A model generated the notes under the pieces. It worked only from the letters and a program-made list of their open reading frames with translations. It ran no database searches and had not been told where the DNA came from. This document shows, one piece after another, positions 14,156 through 33,441 of a stretch of DNA of 64,000 bases (position 1 is its first letter; each line of letters starts with the position of its first letter). This DNA is from a virus. A program made the translations under genes and the position numbers. Location: the IMG/VR virus record IMGVR_UViG_3300043811_000021, positions 70,146-134,145 of that record. The stretch is one strand, 5' to 3'.

Positions 14156-14779
14156 CTAACCTTTTCGGTACCATGAAGTCCCATTCCATATAAACTCTCT
14201 AGCTGTAGTCGCTGCGATCACGTCACTCGTTCCATCGGCGACATGGCTTGTGGCTACCGCAGCGAACGTCACCGAGAAAGCTGATGTATTGAGCACCATC
14301 TGCACTTGCCCTGCAGTGGTCCCGGAGGTCAAAATAACCCCTGTTACAGCCGCCGTTGGCGTTACTGTAGTAACAGGTCCAGCAATCGCAATTGTACCTC
14401 CTGTAGCCAATGCAGCCGATCCTGTAACAGTTTCCGCAAACCCCTTTTGCATGGTCTGCAACACAGTAAAAGAGTTTGCCGTTCCTATTCCAGCATAGTC
14501 AGTCCCTGCTACTGCAATGGTTGGTACGCCTGTCGAGGTCGTGTTTTTAAGAATCCCTGTCGCTAAACCAGAAAGCAATGTCCCATTTAACCCTTTAGCG
14601 GTCATGGCGAGGCTTCCCGCCGTGTTCGTCACGTCTCCAGTATGCGCTGGCTCAGATGCAGCAGGAAGTATGCCTCTCGCCTGTGTAGACAAATTAATTG
14701 TCGTAGCCGAGGCCATCATCAACAAACAGGCTATTAAACATAACGAAATACTTATCGGTTTAGTACCTATAATTCGCAA
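14156..14779 (-). CDS. fibre-like protein with N-terminal signal peptide
   Basis: MRIIGTKPISISLCLIACLLMMASA|TTINL; shares TGDVT...LKNTT.TGVPTIAVAGTDY with 14760..15473. Confidence 0.6.
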   Translation of the reverse strand: MRIIGTKPISISLCLIACLLMMASATTINLSTQARGILPAASEPAHTGDVTNTAGSLAMTAKGLNGTLLSGLATGILKNTTSTGVPTIAVAGTDYAGIGTANSFTVLQTMQKGFAETVTGSAALATGGTIAIAGPVTTVTPTAAVTGVILTSGTTAGQVQMVLNTSAFSVTFAAVATSHVADGTSDVIAATTAREFIWNGTSWYRKG

Positions 14780-15473
14780 GTAGTTTGTCCCCCGTCAATG
14801 GTGCAGTTAGCATTGTGATTGTTGCTGTTGAGATTGTATAGTCGTTACCAGCCCCTGCCTGTTGCAAAACTCCATTCAAGTAGAGACTTAAAGACGTATT
14901 TACAGGAGTATGCGCTAAGGTAAAAGTAGTCAACACTCCATTCGGAGTTCCGCTTGGAACTTCATTGTCTGAGAAATTTGGAGAACTGCCCGTAGAACTA
15001 ATTACTCCAGCAGAAATTGTAATCGTTGTTCCATCTGGCTTTACTACTCCAAAGGCCGATGTAGTCGCCTGAGATAAAGCCGCTGACGATCCACTCGGAG
15101 TAAGATAATCCGTTCCGGCAACTGCGATTGTAGGCACTCCCGTAGTCGTCGTGTTTTTCAATAACCCTGTTGAAAGTCCAGATAGAGCTACTCCGTTGAT
15201 CTGCTTTACCGTGGTCGCAACGGTCCCGGCGCTCGTAGTCACATCTCCTGTCAGAGCAGGCATCTGTGTAGACCCAAGGCTCCCTGAGAGATTCGTGAAC
15301 GATGGTTGTGTCAAAACGGGAGCGCCAGCAGTTGTAATGCTGCTTATCCATTGGTTAGAAGCGCCTACCGTTGACTGAATTCCGCCAATCGTAGAAGCTG
15401 TTGGGGCTGGGAGATTACCGGAAGGTAACGTACCCTGTGACTGTGTGGCGAGATCGATCTTTGTTGATGCCAT
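14760..15473 (-). CDS. tail/head fibre-like structural protein
   Basis: Thr/Ser/Gly-rich repeats; C-terminal FTLAHTP...DYTIS...YRY domain. Confidence 0.65.
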   Translation of the reverse strand: MASTKIDLATQSQGTLPSGNLPAPTASTIGGIQSTVGASNQWISSITTAGAPVLTQPSFTNLSGSLGSTQMPALTGDVTTSAGTVATTVKQINGVALSGLSTGLLKNTTTTGVPTIAVAGTDYLTPSGSSAALSQATTSAFGVVKPDGTTITISAGVISSTGSSPNFSDNEVPSGTPNGVLTTFTLAHTPVNTSLSLYLNGVLQQAGAGNDYTISTATITMLTAPLTGDKLLANYRY

Positions 15474-15489
15474 TTATCCTCCTTACAAC

Positions 15490-30306: not shown

Positions 30307-30315
30307 GTTTACTCC

Positions 30316-33300
30316 TTAAAATACTGGTACGTAGTGCGTAGTACCACCAATATTTACAACAATGCACGTAGTAACAGAGGTCAGTGTCCCACCTTGATTA
30401 CAATTTGAAGCCGCTGCCGTCGTTGACCCATATCCAATCTGACCAGAAGAAACAGCAGGGGCAGCAGAAGTAAGTGTTAGATTACTATGTGTAGTCGGAT
30501 ATGGCTCTACTAGAAGATATGTTCCTGTATACGAACCAGTAGAGGTACAGTTAAGTGTTAGAGTATTGACTCCAGCTAATCCAGGGGTGCTTGGATTAAG
30601 AATGAAAGTGCAATTTGTATTGTAGTTTGTCGCCGTTCCAGAGTCGTAGTAAGTATCCATGAACTGCCAAGTATTTGAAGCGCAGGCAGGTGACCCAGAA
30701 GTAGGAGTTGGGCATGGTGGAGTTTGCGAACTTGTAGATAGAAGGAATGTCCCAAACGCATCAATTCCTCCACCCCACACGCTACCTGTAAAGTGGCCAA
30801 AACTCTGCGATGTAATGCTTCCATTCATAGTGATGTTCCCATTCAAAAACATCGAACCAGCGGTACTTAAAGTTAATTCTTTGGTTTGGTTTATGAAAGA
30901 CTCAAGCAGATCGTTTGTATCTCCTGATGGTAAATACCATGATTCGTAAGAGCCTACTCCTGAATTAGTTACAGAAGGTCCAACCGCTCCCGGACCCATG
31001 TGCGTTATTACAGGTCTAGAAGCAGTTACAGGAGCGAATGTTGTATCAAATGGTCCTGCATTGGCTCCTGTGTTTACACAGCTTGTGTAGCTATGATCAT
31101 GTAAACCATATCCTCCAGTTGGCATCCCGAAGTTTACCGCTCCATATCCAGGAGCACTGAAGGCATCTCTCATCCAAGATGAGGATTGAACGCTGCACTG
31201 TAAGTCTCCATTAATAGTTAAGTCAGCGTTCTGATCTACTACAAACCCGATATTCAGAGTATTCAGAGTAGGCGCAGAAAACTTAGGAGAATTAATTGTT
31301 GATCCATGCGAGGCCGCAGTTCCATTGAATGCATGGAATCCGACATAGACCTGTGAATCAAACTGAGGCGTATCCCATTCTATACCGTTATGGTCACCCA
31401 TTCCTACAAAACCGCCTGGATTAGAATGGATATGTGTAGCCTTGTTAGGCCATGATGTTAATTCTATTCCTGCTCCGTTCCTACAATTCCCAGTTTGAGT
31501 TAACGATGTTGTAAACAGTCCAGTTATGACTACATTTTCCAACTGGGAGTCAGTCATCTGAGAGCAAAGCCCAGTATTGAAGAGAGAGTTGTTATAGAGA
31601 GCTAGTCCAAATGATCCGCTTCCTGCACAGTTCCCTACGGCAGAACAGAATCCAACAGGAGCAGTCGTATTTGTCACAGCAGACGGCACACCTGCGGTTA
31701 CTGTTGCCGTCACATTTGTTGGCATAGTTGTAAAGGCATTGAAAAAACCTGTCAGAGACCTAACCAATCCAACCGGATTGGATGTATAATTTGCTCCTCC
31801 AGAAGTTGTATAAACAGTTCCAGTACCCGAATCTGCAATTGATCCAACGGTAGAACAAGAATTAGGAGCAGTCACCTGAAAACTCGTATTGCTAATTGTG
31901 TTAGTTACTGTGAATCCATTTCCGTTTACAGTACCTCCGTTATCCAAACATGCACAAGCCGTCAAACCTCCGAGGAAAATCGTATTTCCATTGGCGAGGA
32001 AACTTGTCGTAGCAACTCCTAAAGTTGCAGTCCCTCCACTTCCACTAATTGTGCAGTTGTTTATCTGTGTGGCTCCGCCACTTCCAGTTGAATAAGTTGG
32101 AGGACCGACTGACGCTCTTACTTCAATATCATGCACAGTAGCTTGGTATACCCATGACGTATTGCAGCATCCTCCGAGAGAAATATTCATTGGCGCAGGT
32201 TCACCACCTGCATCCGTGAATCCTCCTCCAATCTCTAAGTTGCTATATTCGCAACCTTGGCATCCTTCTACATCAAAAGCTGATGAAGCAAGATGCCCAC
32301 CAAAGAATCTAAATCCTGAAATCTTGATTGTAGGAAGCACAGGCTCTGACGGCGCAGGAGCCTTATAAATCATTGCCCTATTTAAAGTACATCCGGTCTG
32401 CATCGTCAAATAGCTTACCGAGTTTGCTCCCGGTAGTCCTTGTCCAATAAGACTTAGAGATTGAGCAGATACTTGCGGAATAGAAATACTATCGCATAAA
32501 GGATAAGACGATCCTCCGCTCAACGGACCAAATAAAAGAACTGAAGACTGATTTGCGGTTTGGAGCCATGCCGTAATATCTGCGATAGCCAGATTTACAT
32601 ATGTCGGCAAGTTTCCTGATCCATACCCAGTGGTCAACGCCGCGCTTGCCTGATAATAATAGCAAGTCCCCGTCGAAGCAATTGTATCGGAACATGTAGT
32701 TGCCGCACCTGTTGAGGCAGTAGCAGTATTGCTTGGCTGTACAGAAATGAAATAGTGTCCACTTCCATCAGTAACCACACAATGAAGAGCATAAGTTCCA
32801 GCAGACCACGTTCCACACCATGTCGCAGTCTGTCCAATCCACCCATCAATATAAAACACATCATTCACTTCAAGTGAGTTCAAGCTAATGCCCGCTGGCG
32901 CAACAGTCGAAGGCGGGAAAATTACTTGAGTGGAAGTAGGATTCTTGATCACTGAATTGCTTGCTGCACTGGAATTAATCGTTACTATACCTAGTCCATC
33001 TGTAGGAGATAGAGTAATATCTGTTCCAGCTATCAGTTGTGTAACAGCCGATCCTCCACCTCCGCCTCCACCCCCGAAACATCCAGTAACTGTTAACGGA
33101 GCAGAGTAAGTATTTGGATAAATTCCTCCACTAAACTGGCAGTCGTATATCTGTCCTGTGGCAGCATAAAATAACCACTGTCCAGTTCCATTGTCCGCTG
33201 TAAATGGATTAGTAAGCGGATCGCTCGTCGCATCCGAATAGATCGTCGCGAGAGTAGTCGTTCCAGTCAAGTAGACGTAGACTGTGCATCCAGGTATTAC

Positions 33301-33441
33301 TCCCTGCTGATAATTACTGGATGGTAATCCTGAAACTGTTGCTTGAGTAGCCCCTTGAACGCAGTAATTCTGAAATGGCGCTGTCTGAGAAACGGCGACA
33401 ATCGGAGAAAACAAAAACAATAATAGATAAATTCGCTTCAT
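30316..33441 (-). CDS. tailspike/receptor-binding protein with N-terminal signal peptide
   Basis: start MKRIYLLLFLFSPIVAVS|Q is TAATG-coupled to the upstream gene; particle-binding-like domain (CTVYVYLTGTTTLATIYSD..NPFTAD..GQWLFYA); poly-Gly hinge; beta-helix-like central part; many Cys. Confidence 0.7.
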   Translation of the reverse strand: MKRIYLLLFLFSPIVAVSQTAPFQNYCVQGATQATVSGLPSSNYQQGVIPGCTVYVYLTGTTTLATIYSDATSDPLTNPFTADNGTGQWLFYAATGQIYDCQFSGGIYPNTYSAPLTVTGCFGGGGGGGGSAVTQLIAGTDITLSPTDGLGIVTINSSAASNSVIKNPTSTQVIFPPSTVAPAGISLNSLEVNDVFYIDGWIGQTATWCGTWSAGTYALHCVVTDGSGHYFISVQPSNTATASTGAATTCSDTIASTGTCYYYQASAALTTGYGSGNLPTYVNLAIADITAWLQTANQSSVLLFGPLSGGSSYPLCDSISIPQVSAQSLSLIGQGLPGANSVSYLTMQTGCTLNRAMIYKAPAPSEPVLPTIKISGFRFFGGHLASSAFDVEGCQGCEYSNLEIGGGFTDAGGEPAPMNISLGGCCNTSWVYQATVHDIEVRASVGPPTYSTGSGGATQINNCTISGSGGTATLGVATTSFLANGNTIFLGGLTACACLDNGGTVNGNGFTVTNTISNTSFQVTAPNSCSTVGSIADSGTGTVYTTSGGANYTSNPVGLVRSLTGFFNAFTTMPTNVTATVTAGVPSAVTNTTAPVGFCSAVGNCAGSGSFGLALYNNSLFNTGLCSQMTDSQLENVVITGLFTTSLTQTGNCRNGAGIELTSWPNKATHIHSNPGGFVGMGDHNGIEWDTPQFDSQVYVGFHAFNGTAASHGSTINSPKFSAPTLNTLNIGFVVDQNADLTINGDLQCSVQSSSWMRDAFSAPGYGAVNFGMPTGGYGLHDHSYTSCVNTGANAGPFDTTFAPVTASRPVITHMGPGAVGPSVTNSGVGSYESWYLPSGDTNDLLESFINQTKELTLSTAGSMFLNGNITMNGSITSQSFGHFTGSVWGGGIDAFGTFLLSTSSQTPPCPTPTSGSPACASNTWQFMDTYYDSGTATNYNTNCTFILNPSTPGLAGVNTLTLNCTSTGSYTGTYLLVEPYPTTHSNLTLTSAAPAVSSGQIGYGSTTAAASNCNQGGTLTSVTTCIVVNIGGTTHYVPVF

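Follow-up and report, generated by a model that had tools for sequence, protein, structure and literature searches.

In the textbook account, tailed phages assemble wholly in the cytoplasm. Export signals are found on some phage proteins, among them signal-peptide and signal-arrest-release (SAR) endolysins, spanins and the T5 protein Llp. The tailspikes of podophages, such as P22 gp9, Sf6 gp14 and those of Pam1 and Pan3, consist of an N-terminal beta-sandwich of ~100 residues, a hinge and a variable spike body. We analyzed a 64,000-nucleotide stretch of viral DNA, hereafter the window (bases 70146-134145 of the 134,145-bp IMG/VR virus record IMGVR_UViG_3300043811_000021), in which two neighboring genes, A and B, encode a tailspike-like and a fibre-like protein behind predicted Sec-type leaders. 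Protein A has the plan of the podophage tailspikes, and its gene lies one gene downstream of an adaptor-like gene, as in those phages. It differs from Pan3, Pam1 and P22 in that a Sec leader that looks cleavable stands ahead of its N-terminal domain, in which two Cys are invariant. Pan3 has no Cys in its matched part, and the matches to Pan3, Pam1 and P22 start near chain residue 10-20, which leaves no room for a leader.

Exported proteins of similar architecture are known from bacteria. WceF of Pantoea stewartii combines a signal peptide, a P22-tailspike-like head domain and a spike body, is exported and acts on polysaccharide, according to the accessible text of its report (PMC7949094). The same text describes a Tat (twin-arginine translocation) signal, by which WceF is exported folded, and a location in a bacterial exopolysaccharide (EPS) cluster, with no virion involved. 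A and B, in contrast, have Sec-type leaders, belong to phage structural modules and have almost no counterparts in bacterial genomes (two loci in a single-pattern scan). WceF was absent from the PDB profile search with the N-terminal domain (N-domain) of A and from the 50 VIA matches listed. The mosaic adhesive trimer (MAT) proteins of Bdellovibrio similarly have a signal peptide, a conserved beta-rich N-domain of ~130 aa, a trimeric fibre and swappable tips, some of which carry an S74 chaperone domain (accessible part of PMC10769870); that domain (PF13884) is also present on relatives of the proteins studied here. As described there, MATs differ in being encoded by chromosomal genes of a predatory bacterium and displayed on the cell surface, with an N-domain that has no PDB homologue. 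Finally, phages of Porphyromonas gingivalis encode proteins with Q-rule leaders, the function of which is not known according to the accessible text of PMC10367356. These share with A and B the host Sec route and the cleavage habit of the host, with Gln at +1. However, like the endolysins, spanins and Llp, they are lysis, exclusion or small proteins, and none of them is a spike with a particle-binding domain.

Predicted Sec-type leaders of A and B

Gene A (30316..33441) encodes a large protein of 1041 aa that comprises a leader, a putative head-binding domain, a Gly linker and a variable, Cys-rich spike part. Its N-terminus reads MKRIYLLLFLFSPIVAVS, followed by Q. The leader, residues 1 to 18 (33388..33441), starts with MKR, continues with a hydrophobic core and ends in A-V-S. 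Gene B (29077..30306; 409 aa) encodes a leader, an N-module, a fibre repeat and a C-terminal domain. Its N-terminus is MKRLLAFFIFVTGTALG, again followed by Q, and its leader (residues 1 to 17; 30256..30306) ends in A-L-G. These genes, together with gene C (see below) and the neighboring genes, are all on the minus strand.

Both start codons are well placed. The ATG of A at position 33441 overlaps the stop codon of the upstream gene (33441..33830) in a TAATG sequence, and the ATG of B at position 30306 has an AAGGAG motif 5 nt upstream. Each leader has a basic n-region, MKR, a hydrophobic core of 13 to 14 residues and small residues at positions -3 and -1, with no lipobox Cys at +1. The n-regions are short and contain K-R but no RR-x-F-L-K motif that would mark a twin-arginine signal. 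As judged from their sequences, the predicted leaders of A and B are thus genuine and of textbook Sec/signal-peptidase-I type. A first-pass annotation of the window had assigned such leaders to A, B and C, with Gln as the next residue in A and B; their positions and n/h/c patterns confirm the assignment for A and B, and the leaders of these two are conserved, whereas that of C probably stems from a misplaced gene start. No other large protein of the whole 134-kb genome has a leader followed by Gln.

Conservation of the leader in the A family

We called leaders with a simple heuristic of our own, based on n-, h- and c-regions and requiring a basic residue. A database search with A returned 57 proteins, A itself and 56 others, grouped in clusters at 90% identity so that some rows are near-duplicates. 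All but one of the 56 cover just the N-terminal part of A (~4-20% of its length) and have varied C-termini. The exception is P0002, which aligns over 68% of A; its N-terminus is different and carries a hydrophobic leader of its own. In the cultured-phage records, 50,697 in number, full-length A matched two, Tunturi_1 and Tunturi_2, Tunturiibacter phages that the accessible text of PMC11924767 describes as podophages of Acidobacteriota. Leaders were called in 53 of the 57 database relatives, as well as in 43 of 46 A-like open reading frames (ORFs) from 41 phage loci, namely 40 IMG/VR loci seeded with the domain and Tunturi_1. For homologues of nine core virion proteins, the same heuristic called 0/36, 0/31, 0/29, 0/28, 0/27, 0/22, 0/22, 0/21 and 0/20, and for two further core virion proteins 1/24 each; among other ORFs of at least 250 aa it called 32 of 84. 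Since homologues of core virion proteins are almost never called, the leaders of the A family are beyond chance.

A profile of the mature N-domain alone, built from 28 sequences with the leader removed, was run against 1.84 billion representatives of clusters at 50% identity. It matched 4,871 of them at E ≤ 1e-3, 2,553 at 1e-10 and 313 at 1e-30. In the best 150 of the 4,871 matches, the N-domain mostly begins at around residue 20-30. A leader was called in 116 of 127 new representatives taken from the top matches, and the other 11 visibly start too late or too early or have an Arg in the c-region. The predicted cleavage sites of the top family matches are strongly biased: position -1 is Ala, Gly or Ser in 97 of 117 sequences (82, 9 and 6, respectively), position -3 is Ala in 59, Leu in 18 and Val in 11, and position +1 is Gln in 96. 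The leader itself varies in sequence (majority-residue share of 0.41 versus 0.69 for the head-binding domain), and its hydrophobic 10-mer is kept in 42 of 42 aligned relatives (maximal 10-residue Kyte-Doolittle mean of at least 2.24). Conservation in homologues, on which the first-pass annotation made its export proposal depend, thus holds for A, and the Gln at +1 to which it drew attention is real and nearly invariant in this family.

Ala-x-Ala sites followed by Gln are reminiscent of the Q-rule, which is described as specific to Bacteroidetes in the accessible part of PMC5837995; the main text of that paper contains no occurrence of "Acidobacteria." The Gln at +1 also has a parallel in host-type DNA. 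In 400 kb of a Terracidiphilus metagenome-assembled genome (MAG), taken as 20 loci of 20 kb (L093-L112), [AGS]Q stands at the end of the hydrophobic core in 22 of 53 leader-like ORFs, compared with 61 of 544 in the control window (Fisher p 1.5e-7; a small sample obtained with the heuristic caller). The phage leaders therefore appear to copy a host habit. A difference from the Bacteroidetes rule is that the plant/Xanthomonas-type glutaminyl cyclase family PF05096 was found in neither of two host-type MAGs, both of which are incomplete; a cyclase of M28 type was not searched for.

We also considered a bacterial secreted family that merely resembles phage fibres. In a scan of 185,579 genomes, one per species, relatives of the A N-domain were found in two contigs, both from Acidobacteriaceae MAGs. 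They made up two of the eight stretches matched by the single exact peptide pattern used, which limits the sensitivity of the scan, and this candidate was rejected.

Predicted head-binding domain of A

Directly behind the leader, residues 19 to 122 of A (33076..33387) are predicted by AlphaFold2 (AF2) to form a beta-sandwich of head-binding type (pLDDT of 87), which contains the invariant residues C27 and C52. A run of eight Gly residues read from the translation follows (residues 123 to 130; 33052..33075) and is likely the hinge between the anchor domain and the spike body. Against PDB sequences, the N-domain profile matched the N-termini of Pan3 chains named "Tail spike protein" (9vyg chains, E 2.2e-4; 9vyh, E 3.4e-3) and, weakly, the Pam1 "Tailspike head-binding domain" (7eeq_A, E 0.092). 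In VIA-align the model superposed on Pan3 with a Z-score of 8.7 (rmsd 2.9 Å over 82 aligned residues), on Pam1 with 7.4, on the P22 gp9 head-binding domain with 7.3 and on Sf6 with 7.2. Rows 1 to 13 of the VIA output are all tailspike N-domains, with Z from 8.7 to 6.5 and 79 to 82 residues aligned, and pilin-type sandwiches come after them. Profile and model together thus strongly indicate that the mature N-terminus of A is a tailspike head-binding domain of P22/Sf6/Pam1/Pan3 type. The tailspike-type particle-binding domain that the first-pass annotation placed behind this leader is supported by the profile (E 2e-4) and by the fold (Z 8.7 to 7.2).

The two Cys residues of the domain are invariant across the aligned leader-bearing sequences. 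Identity to A among the N-domains of relatives is 39-66%, versus 24-73% for the adaptor. The profile also matches locally two leaderless fibres from the search with B, P0160 and P0098. Pfam and PHROGs gave no family for A or B at E ≤ 0.01. On relatives of A, precomputed Pfam assignments include GDSL lipase, cellulase, pectate lyase 3 and beta-helix families. A look-up of residues 135 to 1041 in Atlas returned viral "fibre"-type look-alikes at 0.92, which we treat as leads and did not use as evidence. Complex predictions of the A N-domain with g110, g422 and g129, conserved proteins of the structural module, scored 0.00 in two runs, with the controls not folded, and they weigh neither way.

Cysteine numbers of leader-bearing spikes

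A contains 30 Cys residues and B contains 8, while the leaderless fibres D and E and four other proteins of the tail/ejection module have none, which confirms the contrast drawn in the first-pass annotation between Cys-rich A and B and Cys-free fibres without signals. The parity of these numbers is informative. In the mature part of 53 leader-bearing relatives of A, the number of Cys is even in 51 and odd in 2, and none lacks Cys (Cys content 1.82%). The 40 leader-bearing relatives of B comprise 31 with an even number, 8 with an odd number and 1 without Cys (1.65%), and the 80 leaderless relatives of B comprise 22, 45 and 13, respectively (0.35%). For the A family, the bias of 51/53 has a binomial p of 3e-13, with the rows being 90%-identity clusters that include near-duplicates. 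An even-Cys bias was reportedly described by Dutton et al. in 2008 as a mark of proteins oxidized in the periplasm by the Dsb system. The even Cys numbers of the leader-bearing A relatives thus point to disulfide bonds.

The cultured relative Tunturi_1 has the same features. Its proteins gp12, gp13, gp14 and gp17 (10371..23028 of that genome) all include a Sec-type leader in their annotated starts, and their mature parts contain 20, 10, 20 and 32 Cys, all even numbers. The annotations are "hypothetical" for gp12 and gp13, "tail spike protein" for gp14 and "virion structural protein" for gp17. These are the four large spike-like proteins of the phage, and its sole annotated tail fibre without a leader is gp33, of 124 aa. 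On the host side, both host-type MAGs contain DsbA-like genes (three matches each), and one of the two contains VKOR.

Two small proteins of the window have near-identical leaders of twin-arginine type, MNRRDFGK... (24697..25284, minus strand) and MNRRGFFKFLG... (21833..22237, minus strand, from an internal Met). In both, an Ala/Val-rich core comes next, then ...APK[IM]LAD. They are the only two matches in the 134-kb genome, and this phage may also send folded proteins through Tat.

Gene neighborhood and exchange with leaderless tailspikes

Across the 40 IMG/VR loci, the structural genes are arranged in the order portal, g79, g93, g328, capsid, g290, g110, g422 and g129, followed by leader-bearing genes, lysis genes and small genes, and then by g506, g1199, a fibre gene, g207, g546, g954 and g309. 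The A-like gene lies inside a phage structural module in all 40 and in Tunturi_1. A separate search seeded with the adaptor gave 80 loci, of which 20 reach g506, and the head-binding domain is found in 18 of these 20.

We tabulated the leader and the two invariant Cys positions for 60 distinct head-binding domains from 119 loci. A hydrophobic leader occurs with both Cys in 56 domains and with one in a single domain. The remaining three (L181, L183 and L189) lack the leader and have neither Cys, and no leaderless domain has one or both. The leaderless domains occupy a slot in the order g506, spike, a gene with no assignment, g1199, and L185 has a domain with leader and Cys in this position. L181 and L185 share 81% identity in their adaptors and 42% in their spike domains. 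Ordinary cytoplasmic tailspikes and leader-bearing ones thus appear to replace each other on a nearly identical tail. The proposal of the first-pass annotation that the appendages are exported and disulfide bonded gains comparative support for A and B, from leader conservation, even Cys numbers and the covariation of the leader with the Cys pair, whereas their joining of particles at lysis keeps the status of an inference.

In the window, g422 (33852..35120) is the likely docking region for the head-binding domain. Its AF2 model (pLDDT 76.6) has as top Foldseek matches chains of 202 to 236 aa in the portal-tail complexes of Pa223, SU10, GP4, B2, VP1 and N4 (E from 5.7e-4); the matched chains are not named in the output, and we take them to be head-to-tail adaptors, so that g422 is probably one as well. 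By synteny, g129 (33441..33830) is a conserved small protein of the structural module, directly upstream of the leader-bearing genes. The conserved tail-module gene g506 (23008..24528) closes the variable region that contains A, B and the lysis genes, and g1199 (16583..20182) encodes a large, conserved, leaderless tail protein. Directly downstream of B is the endolysin gene, predicted to encode a glucosaminidase (28495..29067), with neither leader nor SAR segment. Since the endolysin lacks a hydrophobic N-terminus, a hole-forming holin is probably needed. Just downstream of the endolysin gene lie candidate holin/spanin-type proteins with membrane segments (26353..27069, 27530..27757 and 27900..28433, all minus strand), of which the 238-aa protein has an N-terminal anchor and a weak alanine-zipper match.

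The 134,145-bp record (G000), of which the window is part, has a CheckV completeness of 100%, is classed as "linear" in IMG/VR and begins and ends with the same 149 bases, suggesting a complete genome that is either terminally redundant or was assembled as a circle. Given this completeness and these ends, the record is a complete phage genome, and a prophage in a bacterial chromosome was ruled out. The genome of the cultured relative Tunturi_1, at 63 kb, is about half as long as these 134 kb. The head-binding domain is present in a single copy in the whole genome, in A.

Several further features of the DNA were recorded. On the opposite (plus) strand, an ORF of 319 aa rich in Cys and Lys (20303..21262) breaks up the structural module, with g1199 on one side and the small genes on the other; its match to Stc1 is weak (E 7e-4, below the cutoff), and it is possibly a homing-endonuclease-like insertion. 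The structural module of Tunturi_1 contains HNH genes. Metabolic or auxiliary genes are found at 789..2781 and 57724..60803 (both plus strand), including genes for a methyltransferase, a B12-binding radical SAM enzyme and an AAA_5 ATPase. The latter is near a DUF2201 metallopeptidase/VWA protein, with a 288-aa ORF without Pfam match between them. The last 6 kb of the window have a G+C content of 0.52-0.55, versus ~0.44.

Gene B, leaderless fibres and gene C

B is a mosaic of a conserved N-module, a common phage fibre repeat (residues ~70-135) and a C-terminal domain (residues ~255-409). Relatives that share its N-module have a leader in 6 of 7 cases and those that share its C-terminal domain in 20 of 25, while among the relatives that share the central fibre repeat only, 15 of 87 have one. 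With phmmer, neither B nor g422, g506 or g1199 gave a useful match among PDB sequences. An additional conserved N-module was seen behind Sec leaders, Q-[IV]-[IV]-V-G-N-[YF]...S-A-P-x-G-x-C, which differs from the A type and from the B type (Q-x-Y-P-P...). It occurs in loci L006, L013, L019, L014, L022, L179 and L180 and in proteins P0062 and P0093, and its gene often lies between g129 and the A-like gene. This module may provide a set of branched appendages with a second means of attachment.

The leaderless fibres of the window are D (14760..15473; 237 aa), which starts behind an AAGGAGG Shine-Dalgarno sequence at the first possible codon and can have no leader, and E (15490..16458; 322 aa). 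Gene C as first annotated (14156..14779) does translate from a TTG codon with the leader attributed to it. However, that TTG lies 20 nt inside the upstream gene D, the database gene call for C (P0306) is a protein of 186 aa starting at the second Met, and the close homologues P0307, P0311 and P0315 start at the "mature" sequence and are leaderless. Furthermore, both Cys residues of C are in the claimed leader, and its mature part has none, as in the leaderless fibres. For these reasons the claimed leader is probably an artefact of ORF extension: the segment 14717..14779 is a T-rich spacer, which yields hydrophobic codons by itself, plus the end of gene D, and is probably untranslated. The true gene, 14156..14716, would start with MASATT... 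and encode a small leaderless fibre paralogous to D, itself unable to carry a leader.

A real preprotein initiated inside D is an unlikely alternative that would be compatible with any reading of A and B. The long form has good n/h/c features and an A-S-A sequence before the residues that match the N-terminus of D. A GGGGGA sequence lies 8 nt upstream of the TTG, whereas the ATG ATG of the short form has no Shine-Dalgarno sequence, and one homologue (P0310; 53% identical) has kept a similar leader of 21 residues. The database call, the leaderless homologues and paralogue, the composition of the spacer and the Cys-free mature part argue for the downstream start. The likeness of the C and D N-termini noted in the first-pass annotation holds by eye, as MAS.T.I[ND]L[SA]TQ, and the BLASTP alignment begins further in (C 32-95 to D 60-123, 64% identity). 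A second IMG/VR scan with C (48 loci) returned mostly internal fibre repeats of larger proteins and left its start unsettled, and Pfam and PHROGs gave just a sub-threshold Phage_depo_C match.

Discussion

The comparative data suggest that host-recognition spikes are matured outside the cytoplasm in these phages. The source phage, a soil phage of Acidobacteria, is related to the Acidobacteriota podophage Tunturi_1. With modest confidence, we favor the reading that an Acidobacteriaceae podophage uses A as its tailspike and B as a fibre, and that both are exported and disulfide bonded and attach to particles built in the cytoplasm after the holin has opened the membrane. Export of A and B by Sec and cleavage before the Gln residue would take place late in infection, followed by oxidation by the DsbA-type system of the host and by trimerization in the periplasm. 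Heads and tails, with the adaptor g422, g129, g506, g1199 and the leaderless fibres, would be assembled in the cytoplasm. The holin, which the leaderless endolysin requires anyway, would open the inner membrane and let particles and periplasmic spikes mix, whereupon the head-binding domain would dock on the adaptor/nozzle region. Purified P22 tailspike reportedly docks in vitro. The pay-off would be disulfide-stabilized spikes for an acidic soil environment, and the exported spikes might also strip envelope polysaccharide before lysis. What is inferred in this scheme is that the proteins are translocated, cleaved and oxidized, and where and when they dock.

Several observations weigh against it. 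The leader calls come from our heuristic and not from SignalP. The VIA Z-scores are middling, and the tool warns that values below 8 may reflect a common arrangement, so that the identity of the domain rests on fold and profile together; Foldseek by itself gave no match at E ≤ 0.001, although Pan3 and Pam1 entries came first (best E 3.4e-3). In two of the 20 loci covering the whole region the head-binding domain was not seen, and those two contain other large leader-bearing ORFs. The three leaderless domains may be one clade, in which case the leader/Cys table may reflect few events. The terms "signal peptide," "mass spectrometry" and "SDS-PAGE" do not occur in the main text of the Tunturi paper (PMC11924767), and the open-access literature searched gave no precedent for an exported virion tailspike or for docking after export.

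Other observations on that side are those expected if A and B were exported but never bound to virions, a reading that we consider possible but distinctly less probable. The proteins would then be depolymerases or adhesins acting in the periplasm, on the cell surface or after release, where they could possibly loosen EPS or lipopolysaccharide (LPS) for the escape of progeny, destroy or mask receptors on debris and neighboring cells, or block superinfection, and the head-binding-like domain would serve just trimer stability or envelope anchoring. WceF, with its signal peptide, P22-like head domain and beta-helix, is such a protein: in the accessible text of PMC7949094 it is an exported bacterial EPS-modifying enzyme that never meets a virion and needs its head domain for solubility. 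Bdellovibrio MAT fibres have the same plan on the cell surface (accessible part of PMC10769870). The endolysin gene comes right after A and B, the variable region in which they lie also holds the lysis genes, and in 4 of 41 loci the A-like gene comes last in the module, behind g309. The GDSL lipase, cellulase, pectate lyase 3 and beta-helix families on A relatives also fit enzymes, and the leaderless fibres D, E and probably C, along with g1199, mean that A and B need not be the sole receptor binders. Against a purely enzymatic role, the nearest solved sequence relatives of the domain are N-termini of virion-bound tailspikes, and the domain is as conserved as the tail core, near-universal in the lineage (18/20) and the only head-binding domain of a complete genome. 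In Tunturi_1, the large spike-like proteins all have leaders, with a short fibre as the one annotated leaderless exception. The ranking of a virion tailspike above a free enzyme is mainly due to the swap on a nearly identical tail, where the slot also takes a leaderless, Cys-less version that is necessarily an ordinary cytoplasmic tailspike.

It is also conceivable, but very improbable in our view, that the hydrophobic N-terminus does not serve export, and that the spikes fold and join the tail in the cytoplasm with the leader as an uncleaved, membrane-active or assembly-helper segment, disulfides forming only after release. The core tail proteins are leaderless, and to our knowledge all described tailed-phage spikes assemble in the cytoplasm. 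Such a segment would not account for the basic n-region, the core of ~10-15 residues, the small residues at -3 and -1 and the Gln at +1, which are kept as in exported proteins of host type, nor for the way in which the leader and the Cys pair of the domain occur or are missing together. The even-Cys bias of 51/53, reportedly a signature of periplasmic Dsb oxidation, argues in the same direction.

If the favored reading of A and B as exported virion spikes is extended, the whole Acidobacteriaceae tailed-phage lineage, including the lytic podophages Tunturi 1 and 2, would build its virions in two compartments, with all large spikes and fibres exported and docking at the holin breach. On the present sequence comparisons we regard this generalization as evenly balanced. 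The question is directly testable, since Tunturi 1 and its host, Tunturiibacter psychrotolerans X5P2, are in culture.

What is surprising is a classical head-binding domain behind a conserved Sec leader, together with a disulfide signature, in a family that comprises 4,871 or more clusters formed at 50% identity. Sec leaders on tailspikes appear to be new, judging by the open-access literature searched, and the assembly route itself would be new if docking after export were confirmed. Annotation pipelines that count a signal peptide against a virion role, or that trim gene starts, will mislabel such genes. Should the proteins prove not to join the virion, Sec-exported spike-like enzymes from a structural operon would still make up a novel class of exoproteins encoded by phages of an abundant soil phylum. 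If they do join it, attachment must take place in or after the lysis window, and the holin step would be part of morphogenesis, beyond its role in release. The quality of the burst would then depend on the Sec, LepB and Dsb functions of the host. This would explain the Cys-rich, presumably very stable depolymerases on soil phages and offer a route to disulfide-stabilized receptor-binding proteins, and it would represent the first extracytoplasmic maturation step in tailed-phage assembly.

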